Assembly (NCBI GenBank): GCA_031267675.1
Contig: JAIRYT010000011.1
Location: forward strand, 1 to 40,165
Source: Treponema sp.
GTDB lineage: Bacteria; Spirochaetota; Spirochaetia; Treponematales; Breznakiellaceae
Direction of reading: 5' to 3'
Length of the DNA stretch: 40,165 nt
Shown here: piece after piece, positions 4,392 through 40,165 of the stretch
Layout of the letters: every line of letters starts with the position of its first letter
How positions within the stretch are numbered: the stretch's first letter is position 1
The notes under the pieces: generated by a model
What the model was told of the DNA's origin: nothing
The model's database searches: none
Seen by the model: the letters and a program-made list of their open reading frames with translations, nothing else
Made by a program: the position numbers and the translations under genes

Positions 4392-4529
4392 TTTATGCCT
4401 CCTTCGATGATTTTAAACCATGCTAGAATATATTTTAAAAAAAGTCAAGCCCTCACTGCATGGTTTTTTATATGATCTGACGCAATGATGCGCAGCCGAC
4501 CCAGGCAAACGGAACCGCCGTAAAGCGAA

Positions 4530-4551
4530 GCGCAAACAGACCTGTTATGCG
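4530..4551. repeat. 22-bp near-palindromic site 'GCGCAAAC-AGACCT-GTTATGCG' (inter-cassette repeat family, copy A) within a GC-rich ~110-bp element
   Basis: Imperfect inverted arms around a 6-bp centre; the flanking ~70 bp ('gcgcagccgacccagg...ggaaccgcc...gtaaa') aligns with the copy at 38978-39060 in reverse orientation. Confidence 0.7.
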
Positions 4552-4943: not shown

Positions 4944-5150
4944 ACCTGTTATATTAACATAGCGGTGTTATTTTGTCAATACTTTTAGAAAAATGGCACA
5001 TCCTGGTGTATACCAGCCCCCGGACAGGGACTTTGCGTTGCAAAGGCCGCCCGCCTCCAATCAACTGGAATGAGGCGCGGGAAGGAGCGTTCCCCGGCAA
5101 AGCCGGGGCTCGATTGACCTGACCAAAATGGAGGCAAGCCGTCGTAAGGC

Positions 5151-5172
5151 GGGCAAACAGTCCTGTTAGGCG
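5151..5172. repeat. 22-bp site 'GGGCAAAC-AGTCCT-GTTAGGCG' (inter-cassette repeat family, copy B) within a GC-rich ~200-bp element
   Basis: Same arm-centre-arm geometry as copy A; contains GTTAGGC (=GTTRRRY) and, on the other strand, GCCTAAC (=RYYYAAC). Confidence 0.7.
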
Positions 5173-6286: not shown

Positions 6287-6308
6287 ACAGTCAGGAACGT
6301 TATATGCG
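6283..6308. repeat. Short variant of the inter-cassette motif 'ATAAACAGTCAGGAACGTTATATGCG', overlapping the stop of the oxidoreductase gene
   Basis: Contains both 'ATAAACAGTC' (type-1-like) and 'AGGAACGTTAT' (type-2-like) halves; followed by hairpin 'tgtcgttaaataacgaca' at ~6326-6345. Confidence 0.5.
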
Positions 6309-8025: not shown

Positions 8026-8163
8026 AAAATCAACCTCTTTGCATGATATTTTATAACATCAAAAAAAATCAAGAGGGTTCCGTATGGTCCGCTTTGATAA
8101 AAAACGCCGACTGCGGAATGGGGCATCGGAACACCGGCGTTTTAATTACGCGAAGCGCAATCT

Positions 8164-8180
8164 TGCCGGAACGTTATTCT
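8164..8180. repeat. 'GCCGGAACGTTATTCTG' type-2 variant of the inter-cassette motif at the island-core boundary
   Basis: Matches 'ccggaacgttatgtg' at 39134-39148 and 'caggaacgttatatg' at 6290-6304. Confidence 0.5.
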
Positions 8181-8940: not shown

Positions 8941-10599
8941 TTATTCTTCCTTCTTCTCGTCCTTTCGTTCCTTCTTCTGCGGTTCCGGCTTTTTTTCTGC
9001 CGCGCCGTCTTTAGCGTCCCTCTCCAGCGTACCCAGGAAGCCGGGCAGATCAAGGCCCGCCTGCTGGGCGATATCGTGAAGAGGTGGCAGGGTTTTTACC
9101 AGATTGCGTACAAAATTCGCCGTGGAACTGCTGTCGCCGTTGGGGCTGTCCCACACGGTAATTTTATCAATCTTGATATTCTTGATTGCTTCGGTCTGCA
9201 TTTTAACAATGTCTTCAAGTTTTTCAACCAAAAGCAGCGTGGCGGCGCTTTTTGCGTCGCTGTTCGCGGCTTTGACAAGCGTTTGATACCCTGTGGCTTT
9301 TGCGTCAAGAACTTTTCTAATTCCTTCCGCTTCGGCCGATTTAACCAGAAGAATCGCGTCGGCTTCGCCCTGGGCAAGACGCCGCTGTTGTTCCGCCTGC
9401 GCGGCCGCGTCAATTTCGCGCTTCCGCTTTTCGATCTCGCGGGGCACCACTTCTTCCGCCTCAAGACGGCGCTGTTCGGCAAGCGCCTTTGCCTTTTGTA
9501 TTTCGGCAAGGGCCTGCTGCTGGGCTACTTCGCCCCGCATCGAAGCCTCGGCCTCGCGCTCAAACAGCGTGGCGTTGGATACGGCAATTTCGGCCTTTGA
9601 GGTATTTTCGCCTTCAACGGCCTTTGCGTTATAATCGGCTGTTTGTATACGCTGTTCCCTGGAAAATTCGGCTACCTTAACCTGTTGTTCCTTGTTAAGT
9701 TCCGCTATTCGTACCTGTTCGTCCTTGGAATATTGCGCCAGTTGAATCTGCTGGTCCCGGTTGTATTCCGCCGTTTTTACCTGCTGTTCCTTGCTGTACT
9801 CGGCTATTTGTACCTGTTTTTCCTTATCCAGTTCCGCAACCTGAACCTGCTGATCCTTGTTAAACTGGGCGATAAGAACTTCCTGTTCCTTGGCGAATTC
9901 GGCTACCTTAACCTGCTGCTGTTTACGCGCGTCGGCCTCGCCAATGGCCCCCAGTTTATCCTGTTCCGCCACATCGACCTTGGCCTGGTTGATTGCCGTA
10001 AGGGCGGCCTTTTTACCGATGCTTTCGATGTATCCCGACTCGTCGGTTATGTCGGTAACGTTTACGTTGATAAGACAAAGCCCAATCTTGTCCAGTTCTA
10101 TGTCGATATTTTTTCGTATCGCGTCAAGAAATCGCTCGCGGTCCTGGTTGATTTGTTCAATAGTAAGGGACGCGACCGTCAGGCGGAGCTGCCCAAGGAT
10201 GATTTCGGTCGCCATGGATTCCACTGTTTCACGGTCAAGCCCAAGCAGGCGCACCGCGGCTGAATTCATGCTTTCGCTTTCTGTGGCAATGGCGACGGTA
10301 AACGTGCTGGGCACATTTATGCGGATATTCTGGAGCGACAACGCCCCCTTAAGGGGAATGTTGATGGTCATCGGCGTAAGCTCCAGATACTTGTAATCCT
10401 GGATTAACGGCCAGACAAAGGCGCCGCCTCCGTGCATACAGCGCGACGACCTGCCCCCGCCGACTTTTCCAAATATAACCAAAATCTGGTTGGAGGCGCA
10501 GCGTTTATAACGGCTTGCAAGAAATATGACAAGCACAAAAATAAAAACCGCCAAAAAAAGAATGGCAATCAAAACAAAATCAAAATTCAGCGACATCAT
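8941..10599 (-). CDS. Flotillin (SPFH/band-7 family, FloT/YuaG-like)
   Basis: N-terminal TM helix, SPFH block 'ILVIFGKVGGG', then a long charged heptad/11-mer repeat region ('KEQQVKVAEF' repeats). Confidence 0.8.
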   Translation of the reverse strand: MMSLNFDFVLIAILFLAVFIFVLVIFLASRYKRCASNQILVIFGKVGGGRSSRCMHGGGAFVWPLIQDYKYLELTPMTINIPLKGALSLQNIRINVPSTFTVAIATESESMNSAAVRLLGLDRETVESMATEIILGQLRLTVASLTIEQINQDRERFLDAIRKNIDIELDKIGLCLINVNVTDITDESGYIESIGKKAALTAINQAKVDVAEQDKLGAIGEADARKQQQVKVAEFAKEQEVLIAQFNKDQQVQVAELDKEKQVQIAEYSKEQQVKTAEYNRDQQIQLAQYSKDEQVRIAELNKEQQVKVAEFSREQRIQTADYNAKAVEGENTSKAEIAVSNATLFEREAEASMRGEVAQQQALAEIQKAKALAEQRRLEAEEVVPREIEKRKREIDAAAQAEQQRRLAQGEADAILLVKSAEAEGIRKVLDAKATGYQTLVKAANSDAKSAATLLLVEKLEDIVKMQTEAIKNIKIDKITVWDSPNGDSSSTANFVRNLVKTLPPLHDIAQQAGLDLPGFLGTLERDAKDGAAEKKPEPQKKERKDEKKEE

Positions 10600-11198
10600 T
10601 TTTCTTCCTCCGTTAAGCGCGCGACAGCCGCCGTGTGCGAATCGATAATTCCGGTAATTCGTACCTTTTCAAATGAATCTATCATTTTTCCGCTGCCGGA
10701 AACAGCGTTGGTTTCGTACTTTGTTCCGTTCACGGAAAACGAAATTTTTCCTGTTCCCGAAGGGGGAATTTGCAGGTAGACTTCGGCGATGGTTCCGACC
10801 GCCTGGGATATATTGAATTCTTCGCCCGGACTTTTTAGTTTCATGGCAAAATAAAACAGCAGCGCCGTAATAACAAGTACAAAGAAGCCGGAAACCCCCG
10901 CTATGGCGAGCGCCGCGGGAAAGGGAAGCCCGTACTGCAGATAAGCGGCAAGCCCCGCCCAGCCAAACATGGCGATAAACCCGGTAATGGAATTGAGCGA
11001 GAGCAGTTTGAACGCGCCGTCAGACGCCTCCAATCCATCATGACCGGAATCGTGTACATCACCATGCACATCGTGCGCATCCATGCTCCCGTCGTGCACA
11101 TCGTCCGCGCCAAAGCCGCCGATGATAAACATCGCCACCCGCAGGAGAAAAAATACCGACCCGAAAATCGCCGCTCCCCAAAAAACAAGCATAGACAC
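10596..11198 (-). CDS. NfeD-family membrane protein (flotillin partner)
   Basis: Membrane N-terminus plus C-terminal OB-like domain; overlaps the flotillin start; conserved NfeD-flotillin gene order; His-rich stretch 'HDVHGDVHDSGHDG'. Confidence 0.6.
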   Translation of the reverse strand: MSMLVFWGAAIFGSVFFLLRVAMFIIGGFGADDVHDGSMDAHDVHGDVHDSGHDGLEASDGAFKLLSLNSITGFIAMFGWAGLAAYLQYGLPFPAALAIAGVSGFFVLVITALLFYFAMKLKSPGEEFNISQAVGTIAEVYLQIPPSGTGKISFSVNGTKYETNAVSGSGKMIDSFEKVRITGIIDSHTAAVARLTEEEK

Positions 11199-11675: not shown

Positions 11676-12814
11676 TGCGGATTATTCCCATTGCGAGCGG
11701 AAAGGGCGGCGTCGGCAAATCCCTGGTAGCGGCTAATCTGGCGGTAGCGTTTGCCCAGGCGGGGCAGCGTGTTGTACTGGCCGACCTTGACCTTGGCGCG
11801 TCGAACCTTCACCTGGTACTTGGGTTTCATTCGCCGTTAAAGGGAATTGGCAGTTTTTTGGCCAACACCAAATCGGATTTTATGAACGTGGTAAACAAAA
11901 CCGATATTCGAGGCCTGCGCTTTATTCCCGGCGATCAGGAAATGCCCGGACTTGCCAACCTTAAAAGCTTTCAGCGCAACGCCCTGATACGCCGCCTGCT
12001 TGCGCTGGAAGCGGATACGGACATTCTTGTTCTTGACCTTGGCGCGGGAACACATCAGTCAATACTTGATTTCTTTCTGCTTTCGGGGCAGGGAATTGTG
12101 GTAAGTTCTCCGGCGGTAACAGCCACCCTTAACGCGTATGTATTTTTAAAAAATACGGTCTTTCGCCTTATGTATACCGTGTTTAAAAAAGGAACAGAGG
12201 CGTTTACCGTTTTGGAAAATATACGCAAAGACAATAAACATTTATACATACCGCAGATTCTTAAAGAAATCGAGCAGGTCGATCCCGAGGCGCACAAAAA
12301 ATTTGTTGACGCGTCAAAACACTTTCACCCCCGGCTTGTCATGAACATGATCGCCAATCCAAAAGACGCCGATGTCGCCATGAAGATACGCCGTTCATGC
12401 GAAGAATATTTGGATATTATGCTGGAACACCTGGGAATAATGTACCATGATACGATTCAGGATACGGCGCTTTCTTCGCGGCTTCCGGTGCTTTTGTACA
12501 AGCCCAATTCGGTAATCGCGCAGTCCATCTATCGCATTGCCGACAAGATCATGCAGGATGATGAAGAAACATTTACCCTTACCAAAGAAGATATTGACGA
12601 CAGCTTTCAGGAGGCGGGCCTTGAAGCGGAAATTGATTTTGAGACAAAAATGGATTATGTAGAAGAACTGCTTCATACCGGGGCGCTTTCGCAGGGGGAT
12701 TTGCTTGAAACCGTAAAGAGCCAGCAGTTTGAATTAGGTAAATTAAAAAAAGAGAATAATTTTCTTAAACATAAACTTGCCCAGGCAATTTCGCGGGATT
12801 TAAACCAGGAGTGA
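11675..12814 (+). CDS. MinD/ParA-family P-loop ATPase (FlhG/MinD-like) with a C-terminal coiled-coil extension
   Basis: 'MRIIPIASGKGGVGKS' deviant Walker A. The ORF track starts upstream at 11606, but the Walker motif places the start at 11675. Confidence 0.75.
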   Translation: MRIIPIASGKGGVGKSLVAANLAVAFAQAGQRVVLADLDLGASNLHLVLGFHSPLKGIGSFLANTKSDFMNVVNKTDIRGLRFIPGDQEMPGLANLKSFQRNALIRRLLALEADTDILVLDLGAGTHQSILDFFLLSGQGIVVSSPAVTATLNAYVFLKNTVFRLMYTVFKKGTEAFTVLENIRKDNKHLYIPQILKEIEQVDPEAHKKFVDASKHFHPRLVMNMIANPKDADVAMKIRRSCEEYLDIMLEHLGIMYHDTIQDTALSSRLPVLLYKPNSVIAQSIYRIADKIMQDDEETFTLTKEDIDDSFQEAGLEAEIDFETKMDYVEELLHTGALSQGDLLETVKSQQFELGKLKKENNFLKHKLAQAISRDLNQE

Positions 12815-12836
12815 CCTAAAGGTCAATCCTCGGCCT
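12808..12836. repeat. 28-nt box 'GGAGTGACCTAAAGGTCAATCCTCGGCC' containing the stop codon of the MinD-like gene; related to the xseA-xseB tandem repeat
   Basis: Near-identical to 'GGAGCGACCTAAAGGTCGATCC(C/T)CGCC' at 32240, 32335 and 32425. Confidence 0.7.
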
Positions 12837-12872
12837 GCCGCCTGAAATATGTTGATATAAAACGGAGGAGCA

Positions 12873-15749
12873 ATGGCCGTAGCAAGGGGAACCGTTGAGA
12901 TACGCGTTAACAGCGAAGAAACAGCGGCCGCGCTCGCCTTTACTCCCGACAGCGGGGGCCTTGGCTGGGACGTTGACGCGGTAATCAAGCTGGCCCGCGA
13001 AACGGGAATTGTTCCTTTGCCTGCCGCCGCAGATTTGGAAAAATTTATTTCAAAAGCGGCGCGGGCCAAAGAACCCATGACAACCGTAATTGCCGAAAGC
13101 GCCGGACCCGGAGCAGCCCTGGCAGAAAGCGTCGCCTGGGAACCGCTGCCAATTCCCCCCGATATGGAAGCGTTTACCAAAGAAACCATTGCCAAAGGAA
13201 AAGGCCCGCTGCTCTTTCGTATAAAAACCGAAAAGGTAAAACGCGACACCATTGTTAAAAAACGCGGCAAGTTTCCCTTTATGGGCGAAAAGGAAGAAAT
13301 AGTTACCGTATGGGACAAAAAAGAAATCCGCGAACCGGTGCTGGTAAAACCGGAACCGGTAAGCGTGCGCTATGCCGCCGCCAATGACCGGCTCGGGGTT
13401 TTTAACGCGGCAAAACCGGGGAAACCCGGAAAAACCGTTTACGGGAAACCCTCGCCTCCTCCCTCCCCGGAAGATCCGCAGTTTTATTTAGGCGAAGGAA
13501 TACGCCGCGAAAAAAATGATCTTTACGCCGTCTATGGCGGTTTTTTGCGTATCGGCGAAAACTGGGCCGACATACTGCCGCTTTCAAAATCGTATTTTGA
13601 AGTTAAAACCGGTTCTGACAATGTAACGCTGTTTCTTTACTTTTATCCGGGGGATCCGCGCTTTCCCGTTCCCGGCGCGCGGGAAGTGCTGGCGGCTGCA
13701 AAAGAAAAGGCCGATGCCGCAGACATGGTAAGCGCTGCCGAAATAGAACAGGCGATAAACGCCGCCGTTACCCGGCGCGAAGATTTGCAGGCGTTCCCGC
13801 TGATGCTGCCGCGCGAGGCGGAAGCGCGGGTTGTTATATCGCCTGACGAACTAACGGCGCGCCTTGTACTGCGCAAAGGCGTCGCCGGCGCGCCCGCGCT
13901 CCGGATGCAGGCAATATCCCAGGCGATACGCGATTCCAGGGTACAGGGCTATGACGCCGGCGCGTTAAAAAGCGCCGTAGCCGGATTTATGCAGGGAAAA
14001 ACAACTTCGCTTGACTACATCCTGGTAGAAGGCGCCGCCGCAACGCGGGGCGCCGACCGGGAAGTCGAACTTACCGTCAAGCCGCTGGAAAGCGATCCGG
14101 CGGAAACCCTGCGCGAACGGTTAAAAAAAGACGCTTCGGCGGCGCAGGGTTTTCCGGCGGGTGAGGCGGAACAGCTTTGCCTGGTAAAAAAAAACGCGCG
14201 TATCGCCCAGGTGAGCAAGGCTCCCAACGGCGAACAGGGAAAAGACGTATTTGGCTGCCTGCTCCCCGGTTTGCCGGGAAACGATCCCGACCTTAAACTG
14301 TTTCGGGGACTCTCGCTGCGCGGATCCGATATTATCGCCGATGAAGACGGCCTTTTGCTGGTAAAAGGCGGCGCAAAGACATTTTGGGCAACCATTACCG
14401 AATACCGCGACGCCGGCGCGCAGGTACAGGTAAGCGAAGACGGCATGGAGGCGGTCTGCGAATTCACGTCTCATCTTGGCGCCGGAATTCCCTTGACAAT
14501 GGAACTGGTTAAAGTCGCGCTGGCCGAAGCGGGCGTTACCAGCGGAATTAACCGCGACACCATCGAAACCGGCTGTAAATTGGCCGCGCTTAAAGGAACG
14601 GTAACCCAAACCGTCGCCAGGGGAGTGCTGCCGGTACCTGCCGGCGGAGAGGCGTTATCCTGGCTTATTCCCCAGCCAAAGACCGGCATTCGCATGGGAG
14701 TAACGCGGGGAATGCCCCTGGCCGATCTTACCGTGTTGCCCGACGGCCGCGCCGGGTTTACCGTTCGGGGCGAGGCCATAGCCCCGGACGAACGCGGCGC
14801 GCGTAAGATTACCCATGACGCATCCATTGTGGAACGGCTGCTCCCGCCTGAAGCCGGTCAACAAACTCCGCCGCAGACAAATCAGACAAAACGGCTTTTT
14901 GCGCTTTTTGCCGGTGATTTTATTTTGAGCGAAAATCATCTTTCGATCAGCAATTTAAAAAGCGTAGAAGGCGATGTAGGACCCTCATCGGGAAAAATTA
15001 ATTTTGCGGGCGAAGTACGGATAACCGGCTCGGTTCATCCCGGCTCCACAATAATGGGAGAAGGAGATGTGATCATCGCCGGCAGCGTCGAAGCCGCTCT
15101 TGTTTCGGGAAGCAAGGTTGTCATTGTGCAGGGAATCAGGGGAGGCGGGCGCGGGGTGGTGCGCGCAAAAACAACGATAGAATCTTCGTTTGCCGAATCG
15201 GCGACGCTTTTGGCGGTTGCGGATATAACGCTCATAAACCGCGCCCGTAATTGCAGCATTAAAACAAACGGCTGTTTTCTTTGCCAGGGAACGCTTTCAG
15301 GCGGCGTGTGCAGGGCGTGCGGCGGAATCCAGGCCGCCGAACTGGGCGACGAAGAACACAGCAGCACCGAAATTTCGTTTGGCCAAAATTATTTGATTCA
15401 GGATCAAATTGAAGCGGCTGAACGCGAGATCGAAAAACTAAAAACAGCCCTGGCGCGGACAGACGCGCTTATCGCCGAAATGGCAGAAAACCCCGTAAGC
15501 CTTGAATCGGCGCGGACAGAAAAAATCCGCCTGTTAAAGATTCTTGAGCAGTTTAAATTAAAGGTGTTTAACCTGAGGGAAAAATTTGAGGAACACTATG
15601 CGTCCGAGTTACGAATTAGCGGAACCGTGTACCCGGGGGTGGTCATGGAAAGTCATGGCAGGTATTATGAAATCAATGAAAAACGCCAGGGCGCGGTTTT
15701 TTATTTTGATCGTAAAACAGGGCGCATTATGGAAAAACCCTTTGCCTGA
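12873..15749 (+). CDS. FapA (DUF342) family protein, large
   Basis: N-terminal 'GTVEIRVNSEETAA' FapA-like start, C-terminal beta-helical Gly-rich repeats and coiled coil; located downstream of the MinD-like ATPase. Confidence 0.55.
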   Translation: MAVARGTVEIRVNSEETAAALAFTPDSGGLGWDVDAVIKLARETGIVPLPAAADLEKFISKAARAKEPMTTVIAESAGPGAALAESVAWEPLPIPPDMEAFTKETIAKGKGPLLFRIKTEKVKRDTIVKKRGKFPFMGEKEEIVTVWDKKEIREPVLVKPEPVSVRYAAANDRLGVFNAAKPGKPGKTVYGKPSPPPSPEDPQFYLGEGIRREKNDLYAVYGGFLRIGENWADILPLSKSYFEVKTGSDNVTLFLYFYPGDPRFPVPGAREVLAAAKEKADAADMVSAAEIEQAINAAVTRREDLQAFPLMLPREAEARVVISPDELTARLVLRKGVAGAPALRMQAISQAIRDSRVQGYDAGALKSAVAGFMQGKTTSLDYILVEGAAATRGADREVELTVKPLESDPAETLRERLKKDASAAQGFPAGEAEQLCLVKKNARIAQVSKAPNGEQGKDVFGCLLPGLPGNDPDLKLFRGLSLRGSDIIADEDGLLLVKGGAKTFWATITEYRDAGAQVQVSEDGMEAVCEFTSHLGAGIPLTMELVKVALAEAGVTSGINRDTIETGCKLAALKGTVTQTVARGVLPVPAGGEALSWLIPQPKTGIRMGVTRGMPLADLTVLPDGRAGFTVRGEAIAPDERGARKITHDASIVERLLPPEAGQQTPPQTNQTKRLFALFAGDFILSENHLSISNLKSVEGDVGPSSGKINFAGEVRITGSVHPGSTIMGEGDVIIAGSVEAALVSGSKVVIVQGIRGGGRGVVRAKTTIESSFAESATLLAVADITLINRARNCSIKTNGCFLCQGTLSGGVCRACGGIQAAELGDEEHSSTEISFGQNYLIQDQIEAAEREIEKLKTALARTDALIAEMAENPVSLESARTEKIRLLKILEQFKLKVFNLREKFEEHYASELRISGTVYPGVVMESHGRYYEINEKRQGAVFYFDRKTGRIMEKPFA

Positions 15750-31054: not shown

Positions 31055-32251
31055 GTGAGCCGCCAGAGTTATACCGTTTTTGAAATCACCTCGCTCATTC
31101 AGTCGCAGCTGGAAAACGCTTTTCCTTCTGTTATTGTAGAGGGGGAGCTTTCAAACTTGAGGCCGTCAAGCACCGGACATCTTTATTTTTCGCTCAAAGA
31201 CAGCCGCGCAAAAATAGACGCGGTACTGTTTAAAAGCCGGCTGCCCTTTCTTGGCTTTCAGCCAAAAGACGGCATGCTGGTTCGGACGCGGGGACGTATT
31301 TCGGTGTACGCCCTGCGGGGAAACTACCAGCTTATTGCCGACGACCTTGAACTTGCCGGCGCGGGCGATATTCTTGCCATGCTGGAAGAACGCAAACGCC
31401 TTCTTGCCGCCGAAGGACTTTTTGATGAAGGGCGAAAAAAGCCAATTCCGCGCTTTCCCGAAACTGTCGGCATTGTCAGTTCACCAACCGGCGCGGCGGT
31501 GCAGGATATTCTTACCATTCTGCAAAGGCGCGCCCGGGGCATACATGTTGTAATTTTGGGCGCTCCGGTTCAGGGCGCGGAGGCGGCGGGAATTATCGCC
31601 GCGCGGATTAAACAGGCCAACCAGTGGCATCTTGCCGATGTCCTTATTGTCGGGCGCGGCGGCGGTTCGCTGGAAGATCTTCTTCCCTTTTCCGAAGAAC
31701 AGGTGGTGCGCGCAATTGCGGAATCCGCGATTCCCGTGGTAAGCGCCGTAGGCCACGAAATTGACAACGCGCTTTCTGATTTGGCCGCCGATCTCCGCGC
31801 GCCTACGCCTTCGGCCGCCGCAGAACTGGTAAGCGAAAAACGCGCGGAAACATTTGACCGCATTGTCGAAATAAGAAACGAAATGGTTTCCTGCCTTGAG
31901 CGGCGCATAGAACGCGTCCGTCTTTTGGCAAAACCATTTTGCGCGGAAGATTTGGAATACCGCATTAGAACCATACTACAGCCGCGCCTGATACGTCTTG
32001 ATGACGCAAAAGACGCCCTGCTCACCGGCCTTAAAACAATTACCGCTTCCCTAAGCCGCCGCCTTGAGCTGGCAAAGACCGGGCTTGAAGCGGGAAACCC
32101 CCGGGCCATTCTGGAGCGGGGATTTTCGGTAGTGGTAAACGAAGCAAGCGGAAAAACGCTGCGTACCACGAACGACTGTACGGAAGGCGACAGGCTGCGA
32201 ATCAGGCTTCTTGACGGATCTGTGTACGCGGTCACGGAGGGAGCGACCTAA
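31055..32251 (+). CDS. xseA: Exodeoxyribonuclease VII large subunit
   Basis: OB-fold N-terminus 'SVIVEGELSNLRPSSTGHLYFSLKD' and 'GRGGGSLEDL' block; GTG start. Confidence 0.85.
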   Translation: MSRQSYTVFEITSLIQSQLENAFPSVIVEGELSNLRPSSTGHLYFSLKDSRAKIDAVLFKSRLPFLGFQPKDGMLVRTRGRISVYALRGNYQLIADDLELAGAGDILAMLEERKRLLAAEGLFDEGRKKPIPRFPETVGIVSSPTGAAVQDILTILQRRARGIHVVILGAPVQGAEAAGIIAARIKQANQWHLADVLIVGRGGGSLEDLLPFSEEQVVRAIAESAIPVVSAVGHEIDNALSDLAADLRAPTPSAAAELVSEKRAETFDRIVEIRNEMVSCLERRIERVRLLAKPFCAEDLEYRIRTILQPRLIRLDDAKDALLTGLKTITASLSRRLELAKTGLEAGNPRAILERGFSVVVNEASGKTLRTTNDCTEGDRLRIRLLDGSVYAVTEGAT

Positions 32252-32497
32252 AGGTCGATCCCCGCCAAGCCGCTATGCGGCTTGCGAATTTGTTCGCTGG
32301 TGCAGCCTGCCGGTAAACCGGACGGGCTTGCAGGGAGCGACCTAAAGGTCGATCCTCGCCAAGCCGCTGCCTTGCGAATTTATCTGCTGGCGCAGCCTTG
32401 CCGGTAAACCGGACAGGCTTGCGGGGAGCGGCCTAAAGATCGATCCCCGGCTATGCTATGCCGCGCATAGTTGCGAATTTATCGGCTGGGAGGGTAC
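32237..32497. repeat. Three tandem copies (96, 90 and ~72 bp) of a hairpin-rich GC repeat between xseA and xseB
   Basis: Units begin with 'GGGAGCGACCTAAAGGTCGATCC'. The first unit contains the xseA stop; the last contains the xseB RBS. Internal hairpins 'caagccgc-tat-gcggcttg' and 'ccggtaaaccgg'. Confidence 0.85.
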
Positions 32498-32731: not shown

Positions 32732-34504
32732 ATGGCAATGATACGAATATTAAAAAGCGAGGAAGCAAAAAAAATTGCCGCCGGAGAGGTCATTGACCGT
32801 CCGGCCGCGCTGGTGCGGGAATTTATCGACAACGCAATTGACTCGGGGGCGTCGTCAATAGAAGTTTCCATTGCCAACGGGGGAAGCAGCAAGGTCGAAG
32901 TAATTGACAACGGCTCCGGCATGGACAAAACCGATCTTGAACTTTGCATCCTGACCCACGCGACAAGTAAAATTGAAACCCTTGACGATTTATCCAAAAG
33001 CCATACCCTGGGTTTTCGCGGCGAAGCGCTGGCTGCGGCAGCCGCCGTATCAACGCTGGAAATACTTTCCAGCGTTGACGGCCGCGAAGCATACCTCCTT
33101 ACCGCCGCGGACGGTAAAAGCAAAATTATTCAAAGCCGCCGCGTGCGCGGAACCAGCATACGCGCGTTTGGCCTGTTTGACGCCATACCCGCCCGCAAAC
33201 GCTTTCTTAAACGCGAAGCAAGCGAAGCGGCAATCTGTAAACAAATTTTTATGGAAAAGGCGCTGGCGTTTCCCTCGATAAATTTTCGTTTTATACAGGA
33301 CGGCAAATTAAAAATAAACGCGCTTCCCCATACAGAAGAAAACATGGCTGTTACAAAACGCTTTGGCGAACTTATTCTTTCAAACCAGGCGTTTCTTCAC
33401 GAAATCCATGCGGCGGGCAGCGGCTTTACCGTATGCATAGTCACCGGAGGCCCCGAGCTGTTCCGGCAGGATCGCAGGGGGCAGTATATTTTTGCCAACA
33501 GGCGGCGCATTCAGGATTTTTCGCTTATGCAGGCGCTGGAATACGGCCTTGCCGGATTTTTCCCCAACGGCTCGCACGCCATTGGCGCGGTTTTTGTAGA
33601 TGTTGATCCCGCGCTCGCCGATTTTAACATTCATCCGGCAAAACGGGAGGTACGCTTTGCCTGCGCGTCCGAAATCCATCATGCGATAACATCGGCGCTC
33701 CGCGATTATACCAGACGCAGCGGGCTTGCGATAAGTTCTACCACTGCGGACGAGGCGCTTGAAAACAGCCCGGCCTTTGCCTTTGACGGGGACCGGCACA
33801 AATCGGGTGAATATGGAGATACGCGCGACCGCCGCGAGGCGCCCGGTTCAAAGGCAGGCGCCGCCGCGCTGGCGGCGCTGCTGGAACGTAAAGATGAATT
33901 CGCGCCCTCACACGCTTTATACGCGGGCGAAACAGAAGCGGAATATAAAACCGGGGAAAGCGTAACCCTTGCCGGCCGCGCGTTTAATTTATTTATTATT
34001 GTTCAAAAGGAAGAACGCCTTTTTTTAATTGATCAGCACGCCGCCCACGAACGCCTGCTTTACAATCATTTTTTGTCAAAACCCATCACCGCGCAGGAAT
34101 TACTCGTTCCCATTCCGTTTGTCACCGAAAGCAAAGAAGACGATGATTTTTTATCCCTTAAAAAAGAAGAATTAAAGCAATTGGGAATTCTGCTTAAAAA
34201 TGAGGGAAACGGAAACTGGCTCATTGACGCGCTCCCCGCCGGCTGGGGGCAGGGAGACACCGTACAGGAGATCCTCGCGCTGCGAAACGCCGGCGGCAAC
34301 ATGACCGAACACTGGGCGGCTACACTCGCCTGCAAGGCGGCAATCAAAGACGGCGGTTACCTTGACGACAGCGCCGCCCTTGCCCTTGCGAAAGAAGCCC
34401 TTGCCCTGCAAAATGACGGCTCACGGCCGCGCTGCCCCCACGGTCGTCCGCTGTGGATGGAACTTACCCGCGACGATCTATTCCGCGCCGTACGCAGAAC
34501 TTGA
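32732..34504 (+). CDS. mutL: DNA mismatch repair protein MutL
   Basis: GHKL ATPase N-terminus 'IAAGEVIDRPAALVREFIDNAIDSGA'; 590 aa. Confidence 0.9.
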   Translation: MAMIRILKSEEAKKIAAGEVIDRPAALVREFIDNAIDSGASSIEVSIANGGSSKVEVIDNGSGMDKTDLELCILTHATSKIETLDDLSKSHTLGFRGEALAAAAAVSTLEILSSVDGREAYLLTAADGKSKIIQSRRVRGTSIRAFGLFDAIPARKRFLKREASEAAICKQIFMEKALAFPSINFRFIQDGKLKINALPHTEENMAVTKRFGELILSNQAFLHEIHAAGSGFTVCIVTGGPELFRQDRRGQYIFANRRRIQDFSLMQALEYGLAGFFPNGSHAIGAVFVDVDPALADFNIHPAKREVRFACASEIHHAITSALRDYTRRSGLAISSTTADEALENSPAFAFDGDRHKSGEYGDTRDRREAPGSKAGAAALAALLERKDEFAPSHALYAGETEAEYKTGESVTLAGRAFNLFIIVQKEERLFLIDQHAAHERLLYNHFLSKPITAQELLVPIPFVTESKEDDDFLSLKKEELKQLGILLKNEGNGNWLIDALPAGWGQGDTVQEILALRNAGGNMTEHWAATLACKAAIKDGGYLDDSAALALAKEALALQNDGSRPRCPHGRPLWMELTRDDLFRAVRRT

Positions 34505-34518
34505 CAGCGCCGGAAAAA
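34431..34518. repeat. Direct repeat copy 1 (mutL 3' end + TTGACA-18-TAAAAT promoter), partner at 35302-35384
   Basis: ~93% identity to 35302-35384, with a 3-bp indel. Confidence 0.85.
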
Positions 34519-34572
34519 GCATGGTAAAATTATAAAAGCGGTAAAAATTCGCGCTATCAAAAAAGAGAGGTC

Positions 34573-34896
34573 ATGGACAAAGCGGTACAAGCGGAACTGG
34601 ACATGCTCAAGGACATTATTGTAAAAACTGTTCCCGTTGAACAAATTCACCTCTTTGGTTCTTATGCCCAAGGGGTCCCACACAGCGATTCAGATTTAGA
34701 TTTATATATTGTTTTGAAAGATAATGCCGAAATGCGGGATATTGACGCTTCTTTAAAAATATACCGCGCAATTGGCGGCAAAAAAAATATGCCGGTAGAT
34801 ATTCTAGTTAGTAAACAAAGCGCCTTTACGCACAGAAAAAACAATCCTACTCTTGAACAAAAAATAGTCAAAGAGGGAATACTGGTGTATGGCTGA
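34573..34896 (+). CDS. Minimal nucleotidyltransferase (MNT) antitoxin of a HEPN/MNT pair
   Basis: 'GSYAQGVPHSDSDLDL' GS...DxD nucleotidyltransferase motif; 8-nt overlap with the downstream HEPN gene; AT-rich. Confidence 0.75.
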   Translation: MDKAVQAELDMLKDIIVKTVPVEQIHLFGSYAQGVPHSDSDLDLYIVLKDNAEMRDIDASLKIYRAIGGKKNMPVDILVSKQSAFTHRKNNPTLEQKIVKEGILVYG

Positions 34897-35341
34897 TATC
34901 GCCCTTGTCAGGCAATGGATTTTTCTTGCGGAAGATGATCTGCGGGTGGCTCAACATCTGGAGCAGACTTTGCGGCCTACACCTTTTGAATTGATATGCT
35001 TCCATTGTCAACAGGCAGCGGAAAAATACCTGAAAAGCTGCCTTGAATTTCATGATGAAATCCCGCCAAAGACCCATGACCTGATTGAACTTAATAACCG
35101 GTGTAAAAAATATAGTGCAGCCTTTGGTGATTTGGCGGAAGCCTGCCAGGCATTAACTGCGTATGGTGTTCAACCACGGTATACCTATGGAATGGAGCTG
35201 GAATATGGAGACACGCTAAAAGCCTTGCAATGTGCAGAAAAGGTAAAAATGTTTTTGCAAAAGGAAGCTCCTGAGTTGTTTAAAAATGACCCTCTAAAGG
35301 AGCTGCCCCCACGGTCGTCCGTGGATGGAACTTACCCGTGA
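34889..35341 (+). CDS. HEPN-domain toxin partner
   Basis: 'AEDDLRVAQHLEQ' ... 'CQQAAEKYLK' ... 'PKTHDL' HEPN blocks; the C-terminal ~15 codons read into the duplicated repeat. Confidence 0.7.
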   Translation: MADIALVRQWIFLAEDDLRVAQHLEQTLRPTPFELICFHCQQAAEKYLKSCLEFHDEIPPKTHDLIELNNRCKKYSAAFGDLAEACQALTAYGVQPRYTYGMELEYGDTLKALQCAEKVKMFLQKEAPELFKNDPLKELPPRSSVDGTYP

Positions 35342-35384
35342 CGATCTGTTCCGCGCCGTACAGAACTTGACAGCGCCGGAAAAA
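35302..35384. repeat. Direct repeat copy 2 (duplicated mutL 3' end + TTGACA-18-TATCAT promoter)
   Basis: See copy 1. Confidence 0.85.
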
Positions 35385-35429
35385 TGGGTGTATCATAGGG
35401 TGCCGGAGATTTGTAAAAGAGGGTGTTTT

Positions 35430-35900
35430 ATGTATCGATTTGTAAAACGTTCTTTCGTTGCGGCGGTGATACTGGTAGCGCTGGTTTTGGTTTTGGGGTC
35501 CTGTGTTTCCTATCCGTTAAATTCGAGAAGCTTTAGCCATAACAGACTTTATTGGGATAAAAACATGCCTGTGGATCAGAGCGTTGAATTATGTTTAATG
35601 CAGGGGCTAACCGCAACCAGTTATAACGGTATACCGGTGAATTGGGGGTTTAAGCCCAATATTTTTCTGCCGACTGGGCAAACCGCTCTTGCTCTGGACC
35701 TTAATTACTGGCTGGGACAGACCAACGTCAAGGGTGATGCTGTTTTTGTCTGGAATTTTAAAGCTGGTGACAGGTTTATCTTGCACGGATGGCGAAGAGA
35801 TGGTAAACTGGGAATTCTATTATGGAACATGGATGTGAAAAAAGAACTGGCCGAGTATGATTTCTTCCCGTTTCCAGAATCAAAAATGATTTTAGAATAG
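35430..35900 (+). CDS. Lipoprotein, paralog family member A1
   Basis: 'MYRFVKRSF...LGSC' lipobox; ~60% identical to the 36433-36900 product. Start placed at the internal ATG; the ORF track's 5' extension (35325) is repeat-derived. Confidence 0.55.
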   Translation: MYRFVKRSFVAAVILVALVLVLGSCVSYPLNSRSFSHNRLYWDKNMPVDQSVELCLMQGLTATSYNGIPVNWGFKPNIFLPTGQTALALDLNYWLGQTNVKGDAVFVWNFKAGDRFILHGWRRDGKLGILLWNMDVKKELAEYDFFPFPESKMILE

Positions 35901-35909
35901 GAGGCCAAA

Positions 35910-36395
35910 ATGAAGAATCGAAAATGTATGTGGGCAAGTGTTGTTCTGTGTGCGGCATTGTTTGCCGGATGTGCCGGTGTTCCCGGTAGGTTTGCCTTTG
36001 ATGAAACGGTACCTGCGGAACAAAGCACTCTGGTCGTTTTTGGCACCGGAATAAGGGTCCTGGAGTACAACGGAATCGACATTAGAACCGGCTGGTATCC
36101 AAACGACAAATGGCGGGTTAATAGAATTACTTTGCCGATTGGCGAAACTACAATACTTTTTAATTACTTTAACACAATTAACATGGGAAATACTGCTTAC
36201 TATGCTCATTCAGAAGATATTACACTTAAGTTTACCTTTGAGGCCGGGAAGGAATACACGGTAGCCAGTTACACAAGGAGGAAAGGCCTCTTTACAAAAG
36301 AATACGGTGTGGCGGTTTGGGAACTTGCTTCACAGACTGGTAGTCCCGCCACTGTTGAAAATGCGGTAAAATTCTGGAAGTTTGGAGAAGTCTGA
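35910..36395 (+). CDS. Lipoprotein, paralog family member B1
   Basis: Lipobox 'LFAGC'; shares 'VLEYNG(I/V)D', 'NRITLP.G.TT' and 'FEAGKEYTVA.Y' blocks with the 36910-37428 product. Confidence 0.55.
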   Translation: MKNRKCMWASVVLCAALFAGCAGVPGRFAFDETVPAEQSTLVVFGTGIRVLEYNGIDIRTGWYPNDKWRVNRITLPIGETTILFNYFNTINMGNTAYYAHSEDITLKFTFEAGKEYTVASYTRRKGLFTKEYGVAVWELASQTGSPATVENAVKFWKFGEV

Positions 36396-36432
36396 CACTA
36401 TCCTTCAATGATTCACAAAAAGGGGGCGTTTT

Positions 36433-36900
36433 ATGCATCGATTCGTAAAAAGATCTTTCGTTATTGCGGCGGTGATACTGGCGGCGATGGTTTTGGGGTC
36501 CTGCTATTCCTATCCCATAAATGTTGACAGATTGACAAGCAATAAACAGTACTGGGATAACGATTTGCCCAGGGAACAAAGCGTTGAACTATATATTTTA
36601 TATGGATTAAAACCGACCAGCTATAACGGAGTCGAGGTGAATTGGGGAGCAAAACCAGATGTCTTTTTGCCGCCAGGGCGAGCTGTCCTTACCCTGGATT
36701 TGAACTTTACCTATTACTATACAAATTACAAGGGCAATAATGTATTTGTCTGGGATTTCAAAGCGGGCGACAGATATATGCTCTATGGATGGGAACGAGA
36801 TGGTAAACCGGGAGTCATGCTGTTTGATATGGATGTAAAGAAAAACGAGGAAGATCAATATTTTTTTCCATTTCCGGAATCAAAAATAATTTTAGAATAG
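36433..36900 (+). CDS. Lipoprotein, paralog family member A2
   Basis: 'MHRFVKRSF...LGSC'; paralog of A1. Confidence 0.55.
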   Translation: MHRFVKRSFVIAAVILAAMVLGSCYSYPINVDRLTSNKQYWDNDLPREQSVELYILYGLKPTSYNGVEVNWGAKPDVFLPPGRAVLTLDLNFTYYYTNYKGNNVFVWDFKAGDRYMLYGWERDGKPGVMLFDMDVKKNEEDQYFFPFPESKIILE

Positions 36901-36909
36901 GGGAAAAAG

Positions 36910-37428
36910 ATGTCAAGAAAAAAAGCCGTTTGGGCAATGCTTTTTGTTTGCGCCGTGTTTTTACTTTTTGGATGCGAGACAATATCCAGATTGTCGACAG
37001 CGGAGGATATTACCGTTGACGATACGGCCGCCGAAAAAAGCGCGCTGGTTATTTTTGGTCCGGAAGTATATGTACTTGAGTATAATGGCGTTGATGTCGA
37101 AAAAGAATGGTATCCCCGAAAGAAAACCCGCCTAAACAGGATTACCCTGCCTGCCGGCGATACTACGCTCCGTTTTAATTTGGATTTTGAAATAAGCAGC
37201 GGTGGTATTATATACCGGTATAGACAAAAAAACGTGGAGATGCAGTACACCTTTGAGGCAGGCAAGGAATATACCGTAGCCCCTTATGGAAAAACGATCG
37301 AGCGCCGCTTCCTTACTGAAAACCATTTTGAATATGGCCTGGGTATCTGGGACAGGGCGTCGACCGATGGCACCGGATGGAGTGTTGAAACCGCGATAAA
37401 ATCCTGGAAGCTTGGGGATCACCAGTAA
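36910..37428 (+). CDS. Lipoprotein, paralog family member B2
   Basis: Lipobox 'LLFGC'; paralog of B1. Confidence 0.55.
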   Translation: MSRKKAVWAMLFVCAVFLLFGCETISRLSTAEDITVDDTAAEKSALVIFGPEVYVLEYNGVDVEKEWYPRKKTRLNRITLPAGDTTLRFNLDFEISSGGIIYRYRQKNVEMQYTFEAGKEYTVAPYGKTIERRFLTENHFEYGLGIWDRASTDGTGWSVETAIKSWKLGDHQ

Positions 37429-38269: not shown

Positions 38270-38287
38270 AGCAAAGTACCCGCCAGT

Positions 38288-38340
38288 AAGTCAAAGGCCC
38301 CCGATTGACTTCATAATATAAATGGGCTATACTTAGTATA
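38288..38340 (+). promoter_or_regulatory. mazEF promoter/operator region: inverted repeat AAGTCAA-N10-TTGACTT, -35 TTGACT, 17-nt spacer, -10 TATACT, and palindrome TATACTtAGTATA overlapping the -10
   Basis: Direct reading of 38288-38340; ATG of mazE at 38365. Confidence 0.5.
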
Positions 38341-38364
38341 TCCTATAAATCAAGGACAGAAATT

Positions 38365-38628
38365 ATGACAACAACAATTGTTAAATGGGGAAACAGCCAG
38401 GGAATACGGCTCCCAAAGGTTTTTTTACAAAATATCGATATATCTGAAAATGATATGGTTGATGTTTTGGTAGAAAATGAAGCAATTGTCATTAAAAAAG
38501 TATACGGCAAAAAGCACCGGACCACAAAAGAACGGCTTGCTGATTTCTATGGTCAGAATATAAAAAGTATTACAAAAAAACAAAAAGAAATAGATTGGGG
38601 AAAACCGGCAGGAAAAGAAGTATGGTAA
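38365..38628 (+). CDS. mazE: MazE/PemI-family antitoxin
   Basis: 'VKWGNSQGIRLPK' AbrB/MazE fold start and C-terminal 'IDWGKPAGKEVW'. Confidence 0.8.
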   Translation: MTTTIVKWGNSQGIRLPKVFLQNIDISENDMVDVLVENEAIVIKKVYGKKHRTTKERLADFYGQNIKSITKKQKEIDWGKPAGKEVW

Positions 38629-38954
38629 AACAGGGCGATATAATCTGGCTTGATTTTGATCCACAAACAGGTCGTGAACAACGCGGCAGACGGCCTGCTT
38701 TGGTTGTAAGTAATAAAAGTTTTAACAGCTTTTCGAAATTGGCTATTGTTTGCCCGATAACAAATAGAGACAAAGATCATCCGTTTCATATAAAGTTAGA
38801 TGGAAAAACAAAAACATCCGGAGTTATTCTTTGTGATCAGGCAAGGACCCTTGACATTAATGCCCGTAATTTTGAATATATTGAAACTATTCCTGAAGAA
38901 ATATTATTGGATGTTATTGATATAGTAAACGGATTTATTGAGATAGAAAAATAA
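38622..38954 (+). CDS. mazF: MazF/PemK-family endoribonuclease toxin
   Basis: 'GDIIWLDFDPQTGREQRGRRPALVVS' MazF signature; ATG overlaps the mazE stop. The ORF track begins 27 nt upstream. Confidence 0.8.
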   Translation: MVKQGDIIWLDFDPQTGREQRGRRPALVVSNKSFNSFSKLAIVCPITNRDKDHPFHIKLDGKTKTSGVILCDQARTLDINARNFEYIETIPEEILLDVIDIVNGFIEIEK

Positions 38955-38977
38955 AAACCGTATAAAATGCGGCACCA

Positions 38978-38999
38978 CACATAACAGGACAGTTTACGT
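38978..38999. repeat. 22-bp site 'CACATAAC-AGGACA-GTTTACGT' (inter-cassette repeat family, copy D, reverse orientation), start of a ~175-bp GC-rich element ending at 39152
   Basis: 8-bp terminal inverted repeat CACATAAC (38978) / GTTATGTG (39141-39148); the internal ~70 bp align with the 4440-4550 element. Confidence 0.7.
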
Positions 39000-39130
39000 T
39001 TCACCGCCTTTGGCGGTTCCGGGGTTCCAGTCGCCCAGGTCGGCTGCGCCTCCCACGGCTCCTTTCACCCACATTTTTGCAAGCCCTGGAAACCTGCGGT
39101 TTCCTTTATCGGGCTTGCAAAAACGTCATT

Positions 39131-39152
39131 ACAGCCGGAACGTTATGTGAAA
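39131..39152. repeat. 'ACAGCCGGAACGTTATGTGAAA' type-2 motif; 'TTATGTGAAAC' resembles a XerD-type arm
   Basis: Recurs at 3069, 6290 and 8164. Confidence 0.5.
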
Positions 39153-39167
39153 CGCGCGCAAAAACAG

Positions 39168-39196
39168 TTGACAAAATTAGCAAAATGTTTTAAAGT
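39168..39196 (+). promoter_or_regulatory. Sigma70-like promoter TTGACA-17-TAAAGT ending 6 nt before ATG 39203 (leaderless candidate)
   Basis: TTGACA 39168-39173; TAAAGT 39191-39196. Confidence 0.4.
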
Positions 39197-39202
39197 AAAT
39201 TT

Positions 39203-39973
39203 ATGAAATATCTGGTTAAACTAATATTTGAATTACTAATATTATTAGTTTTTGTGGCATTTACAATATTAATTCATTATGTTATTAATGAAGCACTTTC
39301 ATTGTTTAGTTTTTTCCTTATTTTTCTCACAATTTATTCTGCTTATAGCTGTTTTATGATAATATTTTTGAGAAAAAGGAAAAAATATATACTAAATATA
39401 ATAATTGGAATAATTCAATTTATTATAATAAGCATCATGCTGACGTTAATCATTTCATGTTATATTTGGTTCAATCGGGATGTTAAATTATTACAAGTTA
39501 CTAACTTAATCGAATATGATTTTGGACTTGTATTTTTTACGATGTTGTTAAAATTATTATTTTTCTCATTTATTATTGTTCAAATAATTAATACTAAAAA
39601 ATCATTTTTCATAAATAAATACATATTCATCAGGTTTTTTCCGTTAAAAATAATATTTTTCTTTTTTCTTATTTTTTTAACTCCTGGATGGGAAGGAGTA
39701 TGCCCCTGGAATATTTTGGAAGATACTGTGTATTCAGAAAATTTTAATATTTATAATATCGATAAAATTAAAATTGATATGACAAGAACAGAAATAATCG
39801 ATCTTATTGGCGACCCATTAACAAAATACAATTTTCAAGATAAAGAACATTGGGAAAGTTGGACAAGAGATGGAAAAAGTAAAGTCGGAGATTACGCATG
39901 GTTTGGGTTACATATACAATTTGATGACAATAATAAAGTTAAAAAAATATCTAGTGAATGGAATTACGATTGA
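39203..39973 (+). CDS. AT-rich polytopic membrane protein, unknown function (C-terminal soluble SmpA/OmlA-like segment possible)
   Basis: 256 aa, ~6 TM helices, very low GC. Confidence 0.4.
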   Translation: MKYLVKLIFELLILLVFVAFTILIHYVINEALSLFSFFLIFLTIYSAYSCFMIIFLRKRKKYILNIIIGIIQFIIISIMLTLIISCYIWFNRDVKLLQVTNLIEYDFGLVFFTMLLKLLFFSFIIVQIINTKKSFFINKYIFIRFFPLKIIFFFFLIFLTPGWEGVCPWNILEDTVYSENFNIYNIDKIKIDMTRTEIIDLIGDPLTKYNFQDKEHWESWTRDGKSKVGDYAWFGLHIQFDDNNKVKKISSEWNYD

Positions 39974-39989
39974 TAGCAATGCGTGCGCA

Positions 39990-40012
39990 TCGCATAACAG
40001 GCCTGTATGCGT
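39990..40012. repeat. 22-bp near-perfect palindrome 'TCGCATAAC-AGGCCT-GTATGCG' (inter-cassette repeat family, copy F), 18 nt after the membrane-protein stop
   Basis: Left arm CGCATAA is identical to the inner part of the E. coli dif XerC arm (GGTGCGCATAA). Confidence 0.7.
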
Positions 40013-40165
40013 TCCGGGCCTTCGGCCCTCCAGGGCTCCGCAACGGCTAGTATTGTGTCAACAATGAAATAGTGGATAAAGATGGTGAAGTTTAATTCGC
40101 GCGCCGTCTGTCGTAAACCTCCGGTTTATTTTGTTTGCGTTTTCATTGCGTGTAGTATTCCACTC

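Follow-up and report, generated by a model that had tools for sequence, protein, structure and literature searches.

The window examined here is the whole of a 40,165-bp metagenome contig (JAIRYT010000011.1) of Treponema sp., in which a core of about 29 kb at 50-57% GC sits between two low-GC islands, one running from position 1 to about 8930 and the other from about 38290 to the contig end. Our subject is a GC-rich element in the second island, at 38978-39149. We consider it very probable that this element is an attC-type site and that the block containing it (38290-40165) is the edge of an integron-type cassette array in the chromosome of a termite-gut Treponema. Reading rightwards from the core gene nagD, the block holds the mazEF promoter, mazE, mazF, the long attC, a membrane-protein cassette with its open reading frame (ORF), and a decayed short attC, after which the contig ends:

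38305-38333, plus strand, predicted sigma-70-like promoter of the mazEF cassette (TTGACT, 17 nt, TATACT), overlapping a palindromic operator-like sequence
38365-38628, plus strand, mazE antitoxin, 87 aa (PF04014 MazE_antitoxin, E 1.9e-10)
38622-38954, plus strand, mazF (PemK-like) toxin, 110 aa (PF02452 PemK_toxin, E 2.2e-30)
38978-39149, plus strand, probable long-form attC site, 172 nt, from covariance model R2, alignment and folds
38978-38985, plus strand, R'' of this attC, CACATAAC
38986-38989, plus strand, its spacer AGGA
38990-38998, plus strand, L'', CAGTTTACG
38999-39126, plus strand, branched GC-rich variable region
39127-39134, plus strand, L', CATTACAG
39135-39141, plus strand, spacer CCGGAAC
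39142-39149, plus strand, R', GTTATGTG
39143-39990, plus strand, body of the second cassette, starting TTATGTG, with its ORF at 39203-39973
39168-39173 and 39191-39196, plus strand, promoter-like TTGACA and TAAAGT of the second cassette, 17 nt apart
39991-40057, plus strand, decayed short-form attC (models R1 16.2 bits, R2 15.7 bits)

An earlier reading made from the sequence alone had drawn the element as about 175 bp (38978-39152) with inverted ends. The 8-bp end pair is confirmed, although the element stops at 39149, for a length of 172 nt. On the attC-type reading, the terminal inverted repeat is the R''/R' core-site pair, and the inner palindromes are the L''/L' box and the branched variable region. 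The internal gcaagccc/gggcttgc hairpin already noticed there (39079-39086 and 39113-39120) is present in the minimum-free-energy fold of both strands. An 8-bp inverted pair alone could be chance; the family evidence is not.

That family was found by scanning with a degenerate 20-mer of one element end, which matched at least 120 contigs, almost all of them from a handful of termite-gut metagenomes. A pattern scan of viral contigs gave three single matches. Fetched contigs and loci carry L numbers, L204 being Leadbettera azotonutricia ZAS-9 (CP001841), which has a full family copy of 94 bits. Many of the matched contigs contain several same-strand copies, 0.8-1.7 kb apart, with up to five pattern matches in L118. 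'Type A' and 'type B' ends had been treated as two separate sites, a view that was replaced by the R''-L''/L'-R' reading after the L118 array. In gene orientation, the anatomy is R''(CRCMTAAC)-AGGN-L''(9 nt)-variable region-L'(9 nt)-CCGGAAC-R'(GTTAKGYG). Full copies, of which 55 were extracted, span 61-216 nt and fall into 5 short (61-70 nt), 44 main (167-183 nt) and 6 long (194-216 nt) forms. Across the 45 aligned copies, AAC, AGG, CC, AAC and GTTA never vary. An integron attC begins with an inverse core site R'' (RYYYAAC) and ends with a core site R' (GTTRRRY); the window element has the conserved AAC/GTT of both in CACATAAC...GTTATGTG.

The L''/L' stem of the family is conserved as structure and not as sequence. 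Compensatory (double) changes occur in 20 of 30 consensus pairs, with the L box and three inner stems covarying. Column pair 19/174 in the L box, for example, is AU in 22 copies, GC in 19 and CG in 4, and the 9-bp L box shows compensation at five columns. Mutual information between L'' and L' reaches 2.03 bits, against 0.44 when shuffled. Short forms fold on either strand as a textbook attC hairpin, with R box, asymmetric internal loop, L box and terminal hairpin (z -5.8 and -6.6). Scored with model R2, built from 44 metagenome copies with the window sequence excluded, the window element attains 105.5 bits (E ~3e-28). Its own fold has z of -2.8 and -2.9 on the two strands, and none of 200 shuffles was as stable. 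The minimum-free-energy fold of the window element taken alone is misleading, pairing ACGTTT with GAACGT; its boxes are resolved only by comparative data, not by single-sequence folds.

The sites delimit units with a consistent signature. In 81 of 90 cases, the R' that opens a cassette and the R'' that closes it are perfectly complementary; R'' and R' within one attC are complementary in 20 of 67, about chance. The same test on T. denticola cassettes gave 51 of 58 (PMC4909258). In the window, the membrane-protein cassette starts with GTTATGTG and is followed downstream by R'' CGCATAAC, a match at 7 of 8 positions. Complementarity in 81 of 90 would alone fit a crossover at either L'/R' or R''/L''. 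There is, however, a linkage break between spacer B and R', L''-variable region-L'-spacer B being tightly linked, and this supports L'/R'. In the main attC the predicted crossover is at G|TT, 39142/39143. Among 89 distinct cassettes, the median length is 800 bp and the GC content 27.7%; the longest ORF runs in the same direction as the attC in 83 cassettes and against it in 3, and the remaining 3 have no ORF. Cassettes shared between contigs have different neighbours, and at the population level the attC family looks active. The cassettes of classical integrons are described as lacking promoters; in 43 of the 89 cassettes from L084-L203, a sigma-70-like promoter (TTGACA, 16-18 nt, TAnnnT) lies within 110 nt after R', compared with 2/89 for mid-cassette and 5/89 for reverse-strand controls.

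Non-recombinogenic extragenic palindromes, such as repetitive extragenic palindromic or bacterial interspersed mosaic elements (REP/BIME-like), or terminator or mRNA-stabilising hairpins, would also be GC-rich, strongly folding, intergenic and downstream of ORFs. The window, moreover, yields no tyrosine recombinase or integrase over its 40 kb in protein family scans and tblastn with IntI1. Such palindromes nevertheless leave unexplained why R' is complementary to the next R'' and not to its own, why low-GC single-ORF units are confined to islands, why the same ORF unit occurs with different neighbours, and why an integrase and attI are associated with the family. The covariance models find no strong copies within the 29 kb of core genes, and T-runs before and A-runs after the hairpins on both strands indicate that these are not standard terminators. 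We regard this explanation as very improbable. To a further one, that the elements are insertion-sequence (IS) fragments or derivatives like miniature inverted-repeat transposable elements (MITEs), we give almost no weight. It would make the 8-bp ends terminal inverted repeats and would suit the many copies, but the inverted repeats are functionally part of the neighbouring ORF units, no target-site duplications were seen, and no transposase family is found among the window proteins scanned. The window matches no plasmid record, and an Rfam scan of it gave no family reaching its gathering score, the sole sub-threshold match being at chance level. Neither a match to a known IS or RNA gene nor a want of conserved boundaries, the two outcomes that the sequence-only reading had named as fatal to itself, was observed.

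Homologous units from other arrays agree with the attC-type reading of the block. mazE and mazF are adjacent, overlap by 7 nt and form a MazEF type II toxin-antitoxin pair, with an antitoxin of the AbrB-fold MazE kind and a PemK/MazF toxin. Cassette-borne homologues in L084 are 54% (mazE) and 64% (mazF) identical, with an R''-L'' half site 28 nt after the L084 stop. The L084 mazEF unit also has a similar GGATATACTTAATATATCC region at its promoter, and 38305-38333 is predicted to function as one. The second cassette has a GC content of 0.30, against 0.53 for the core, and its ORF (39203-39973) encodes a multi-pass membrane protein whose C-terminus weakly resembles BamE (Pfam E 2.8e-4, below the curated cut-off). 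Homologues of this protein are 40-42% identical; one of them, P0243 (40%), lies in the array-like contig L214 with a minimal R''-R' site 18 nt after its stop. The suggestion that these units be sought elsewhere bore fruit: mazEF and the membrane protein both have homologues in other arrays, and there too a family site follows the stop codon at the matching position.

We sought the recombinase by tblastn with IntI1 over the array contigs; the IntI1 sequence of this search, and the IntI1 and XerD sequences of the alignment below, were entered by hand. With this query the array contigs yielded no canonical IntI; the only matches were the remnant of an integrase C-terminus in L087 and integrases of phage type in L132 and L151. 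The L087 remnant, upstream of a cassette, led to the decayed integrase of ZAS-9. L204 (~3.779-3.783 Mb of CP001841) is a decayed platform, with a frameshifted integrase of this family (9640-10312), a toxin-antitoxin (PIN) cassette with a partial attC (10448-11049), then IS elements and then the 94-bit attC (12828-13003). Full-length relatives are 290-309 aa. They lie in five independent gene contexts, within 1.4 kb of a contig end. Every contig with this integrase family among L206-L213 ends within 0.3-1.4 kb of the integrase gene on its attI side, which is consistent with assembly breaks in a repeat array and implies that arrays are systematically under-assembled. An attI-like ...TA|GTTAKGYG (one such site reading GAAATTCGCCTACAAGTAGTTAGGCG) adjoins the integrase gene in L206/L207, L209-211, L213, L212 and L087. 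The gene is divergent from the array in L206/L207, L209-211 and L213, and co-oriented with it in L212, L087 and L204. The attI-like GTTAGGCG of L207 agrees with R'' CGCCTAAC of the first cassette there; an attC scoring 57 bits follows. At L209:150-720 the attI-like region is tandemly duplicated (~284 bp, two extra copies), each copy being joined to an ORF-less hairpin unit, and the duplicated units precede a final GAAATTCGTATACAAGTA|GTTAGACG.

The catalytic residues R166, K191, H256, R259, H282 and Y291 are invariant in these integrases, which match PF00589 and PF13495 in Pfam. Their identity is 37% with IntI1 and 29% with XerD (hand-entered sequences), and they have an IntI-like SPLD C-terminal motif. 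They also align with XerA over their full length. The alignment of P0176 with VchIntIA (2A3V) is split in two, 19 residues of P0176 standing against 61 of IntI4, and a multiple alignment leaves a gap of about 41 residues relative to the hand-entered IntI1. Given its adjacency, the 290-309-aa integrase is likely the cognate enzyme of these sites. Separately, L151:882-2156 (minus strand) and L132:1183-2481 (plus strand) encode homologous phage-type integrases of 424-432 aa (Arm/SAM/catalytic) directly beside attC sites. As candidates for the array recombinase these were set aside, being generic and scoring far short of the IntI cut-offs; an element inserting at attC sites may be their source, or they may be cargo.

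A number of observations weigh against the attC-type reading. In the window, the main element at 172 nt exceeds the usual attC length of 57-141 nt. Its L'' (CAGTTTACG) pairs poorly with L' (CAT-TACAG), so that structural conservation of the stem, clear for the family, is weak in this copy, which is the single broken pair in several L-box columns of the alignment. No attC hairpin forms when the second site, 39991-40057, is folded (z -0.6 and -1.0). No element, R' or attI junction was found left of mazEF (38270-38364); the proposal that the mazEF and membrane-protein block is bounded by the element family holds to the right of mazEF and fails on its left. No attI was found in the window either. 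In the family, the difficulty lies with the L box. In the folded bottom strand of classical attC sites, two bases are extrahelical: a G that protrudes in L'' and a spacer T. Here L'' and L' are of equal length and fully paired, and the site is asymmetric only in a bulge of one nucleotide, the N of AGGN, and in four extra nucleotides in CCGGAAC. Aligning and folding the copies, as had been proposed, hence recovers the R''-L''-L'-R' anatomy without the classical extrahelical bases. R'' shows, moreover, no linkage to L'' (p 0.04; for the spacer base, p 0.86), and 3 of 4 informative contig pairs sharing a cassette 3' end and R'' have a different downstream L''...L' module. The integrases score 200-213 bits with TIGR02249 (cut-off 265) and 146-164 with NF011946 (cut-off 435). 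They lack the IntI-specific additional domain (patch III), which IntegronFinder requires and which is reported necessary for activity (Messier and Roy 2001, as cited in PMC9668308). Finally, short metagenome contigs are the source of all the comparative data. By their structure and cassette signature the sites are of the attC kind; they are not demonstrably those of a canonical integron, because the associated integrase is without the IntI domain.

The module differences and the unlinked R'' and L'' are not predicted by the classical single-crossover model. L118 and L197 share a cassette 97.4% identical over 738 bp, yet have the L boxes CTGTAACTG and CTGTATGCG. The same first cassette carries a 67-nt attC in L206 (237-303) and a long-form attC in L207 (1-131), and minimal sites of 21-27 nt with R'' and R' only occur at L214:6324-6344 and at 6280-6306 of the window. 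Short and long attC on one cassette, together with the minimal sites, mean that the L''-hairpin-L' block behaves as an optional module, with hairpin modules apparently exchanged separately from the ORFs. These observations suggest that exchange also takes place at a second junction, by top-strand or double-stranded recombination or by gene conversion, with the caveat of small numbers and metagenome assembly.

These same data bring in the alternative of Xer/dif-type (pdif-like) modules, which the sequence-only reading had raised. Each element end would then be a double-stranded core site with Xer-like exchange at both spacers, and ORF modules and hairpin modules would be separate units between oppositely oriented sites. 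R''-spacer-L'' is itself near-palindromic, as in CGCATAAC-AGGC-CTGTATGCG, and site orientation alternates. The absence of linkage between R'' and L'' beside a tightly linked L''-variable region-L'-spacer B, the different L modules on the same cassette end in 3 of 4 pairs, the minimal R''-R' sites without an L module, and an integrase that aligns full-length with XerA and has no IntI insertion all fit as well. However, the arms are 8-9 bp with spacers of 4 and 7 nt, as opposed to the 28-bp site of a pdif module, with 11-bp XerC and XerD arms around a 6-bp centre (11-6-11), on which host XerCD acts. The L arms vary freely yet covary with a partner 60-200 nt away, which points to base pairing and not to recognition of sequence by a protein. 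ORF orientation is directional (83 versus 3), array starts have a dedicated integrase and an attI-like site, and that integrase is nearer to IntI1 (37%) than to XerD (29%) and shares the SPLD motif. Xer/dif modules are therefore unlikely and not the best fit, though the data do hint at something like their two-junction exchange.

The reading we prefer, of attC-type sites in cassette arrays, is one of the two between which the sequence-only reading had hedged, and it is supported by box covariation, co-oriented arrays, R'/R'' complementarity, homologous cassettes and the integrase/attI platforms. Under it, by analogy with integrons, a tyrosine recombinase would bind the R and L boxes of an attC most likely folded as a single-stranded hairpin, and strand exchange would take place at G|TT in R'. 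The unit [TTAKGYG - promoter - ORF - attC...G] would thereby be able to leave the array in circular form and to enter again at a different attC or at an attI-like site. It is possible, although we would bet somewhat against it, that termite-gut treponemes carry an integron-like system departing from canonical rules in four linked ways at once. The recombinase may be IntI-related without the domain held necessary for attC recombination, and the attC sites may correspondingly be without the L-box extrahelical base. About half of the cassettes may bring their own promoter. Exchange may occur at both R''|L'' and L'|R', so that ORF and hairpin modules assort independently, as if both strands or double-stranded half-sites were recombinogenic.

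Clusters of attC sites lacking integron integrases are known as CALINs (IntegronFinder, Cury 2016, PMC4889954). With no integrase on the 40-kb contig, the window array is of CALIN type, its sites being 38978-39149 and 39991-40057; an intI and attI adjacent to the array, as in a complete integron, were not found in the window. The main attC probably is a relic, having a damaged L box, and the next attC is decayed, so the block is probably immobilised. Plausibly, the mazEF addiction module holds it in place.

The decayed site keeps R'' CGCATAAC, spacer AGGC and L'' CTGTATGCG (39991-40011) and a small hairpin GGGCC-TTC-GGCCC, while its L'-R' is degenerate (CGCA-ACGG CTA GTATTGTG). The near-palindrome described earlier as following the cassette ORF is thus CGCATAAC-AGGC-CTGTATGCG, at 17 nt and not 18 nt from the ORF end. 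It does belong to the attC family, as only the R''-L'' half of a decayed short attC whose fold is lost. A longer 3' end for this attC (~40134-40155, GTCGTAAAC-CTCCGG-TTTAT) was considered and received no support from the covariance model. Further copies lie in the first island:

4997-5172, minus strand, degenerate full-length attC (R1 22.6, R2 22.9 bits; inverted repeat I1), with R''-L'' CGCCTAAC-AGGA-CTGTTTGCC and a decayed R' end
4386-4551, minus strand, partial attC (R1 14.1, R2 14.7 bits; inverted repeat I3 with 39988-40016), with a good R''-L'' half CGCATAAC-AGGT-CTGTTTGCG and first hairpin (~4487-4551), its 3' half unrecognisable
3050-3087, plus strand, attC remnant, a weak call (R1 12.5, R2 12.9 bits, E 0.01-0.03), CGCATAAG...CATACAG-CCGGAGC-GTTTGGCG, downstream of the gtrA/PMT/GT2 cluster
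6280-6306, plus strand, minimal R''-R' site without L module, a weak call (R1 9.3, R2 9.1 bits), CGTATAAAC-AGTCAG-GAAC-GTTATATG, at the 3' end of a FAD-protein ORF
8112-8180, plus strand, very weak remnant ending CCGGAAC-GTTATTCT, alone not significant (R1 6.0 bits, E ~1.5), with an exact GGAACGTTAT match, at the inner edge of the island

The minimal site has the architecture of L214:6324-6344 (CGCTTAAC-GAAAC-GTTAGGCG). Exact copies of two end motifs are confined to the two islands, those of island 1 mostly on the opposite strand. Island 1 has degenerate sites only, in mixed orientation, with the clearest copies on the opposite strand. Models R1 and R2 thereby uphold, through weaker and degenerate copies, the claim that the same element family occurs in the first island 30 kb away. 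Both low-GC islands read as decaying CALIN-type arrays, and their cargo comprises toxin-antitoxin, restriction-modification and surface-protein genes.

Several features of the first island are recorded here in their own right. At 55-78, close to the left end of the contig and upstream of a gtrA-like gene, there are 24 consecutive C, which could be a phase-variable tract or an assembly artefact. The low-GC GtrA-like/PMT_2 (518 aa)/GT2 cluster at 277-2999 resembles a surface glycosylation module; with the weak attC remnant that comes after it, it may represent a cassette of several genes. The cassette ORF at 3105-4391 (minus strand) encodes a fusion, nuclease-like (GIY-YIG/T5orf172) at its N-terminus and joined to an adenine methyltransferase domain of EcoRI type. 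The gene pair at 6326-8025 (minus strand) consists of an N6/N4 DNA methyltransferase (305 aa) and a translationally coupled 260-aa ORF without a Pfam match, and is probably a type II restriction-modification system; it lies in reverse orientation between the minimal site 6280-6306 and the weak remnant 8112-8180.

The core carries genes for flotillin, a ParA-like protein, FapA, lgt, OTCase, pepF, efp, gcvT/P, xseA, mutL and a NagD-type HAD hydrolase; no tRNA genes were found in the window. Nearest relatives of nagD are termite-gut Treponema/Spirochaetaceae metagenome-assembled genomes, at up to 95% protein identity. Among 20 related Treponema/Spirochaetaceae loci, conservation at the DNA level extends over nagD only, and the downstream DNA is different in every relative. 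Repeats of other kinds also occur in the core. Three tandem GC-rich repeats of 91-94 nt containing GGAGCGACCTAAAGGTCGATCC lie between xseA and mutL (32214-32462), with a further copy after the ParA-like gene (12808-12841) and none in any fetched locus. Seven 33-nt (11-aa) tandem repeats of a QQVKVAEF-type coiled coil lie inside the flotillin-like gene (9652-9918). Tandem paralogous small lipoprotein-like genes, none with a Pfam match, recur with a period of about 1 kb at 34446-37428 (repeat families D5, D10, D14, D15 and D19).

Integrons are defined, and found by software, through the extra domain of IntI and the flipped-out attC bases which that domain reads. An attC family that fills termite-gut Treponema metagenomes, a group earlier reported to be without integrons, and whose only array-start integrase is without the extra domain, bears on both. 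If the array-start enzyme acts on these sites, the accepted minimum requirements for cassette recombination would be too narrow, and surveys by IntI profile would under-count integron-like systems and label them orphan CALINs. Promoters carried by cassettes, and hairpin modules that apparently exchange on their own, would bear on the origin of attC sites and cassettes and on the expression of distal cassettes.

In T. denticola, Coleman in 2004 is said to have described a chromosomal 'reverse' integron. Wu 2013 reported chromosomal integrons in host-associated Treponema (T. denticola, T. succinifaciens and T. vincentii), with a short attC class of 63-68 bp and a long class of 115-132 bp, and no trace of integrons in termite-gut treponemes (PMC3607928). 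The family described here is, in contrast, abundant in termite-gut treponemes and present in ZAS-9. It shares with the known Treponema integrons the host group at genus level, single-ORF cassettes, attC with AAC/GTT core sites in short and long classes, R'/R'' complementarity across the cassette, and some platforms with a co-oriented integrase (here L087, L212 and L204). It differs in having no protruding G in the L box, long forms of 167-216 nt, an integrase without the IntI-specific domain, and both divergent and co-oriented platforms. The window resembles a CALIN in that at least two attC sites lie within 1 kb with no integrase over 40 kb, and its sites are partly degenerate, as expected in decaying arrays.

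The superintegron of Vibrio cholerae has V. cholerae repeats (VCRs) of ~120-130 nt, a canonical IntI with the I2 helix, extrahelical bases, and cassettes mostly described as promoterless. Like it, the present system is a sedentary chromosomal array with one lineage-specific attC family, conserved internal sequence and branched variable structures, and both have toxin-antitoxin cassettes with their own promoters, which stabilise the array in V. cholerae and may do so here. Unlike it, 43 of 89 cassettes here have a 5' sigma-70-like promoter. The pdif modules of Acinetobacter plasmids use 28-bp sites (11-6-11) and host XerCD. They too are gene modules, often toxin-antitoxin, between oppositely oriented short sites with exchange apparently at both flanks, but there is no covarying hairpin between pdif sites and no dedicated integrase or attI. 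XerCD also integrates the folded single-stranded DNA of the CTX phage by exchange of one strand, without the IntI domain. That system, although it uses phage attP and dif and has no cassette array, gives a mechanistic precedent for the integrase described here.

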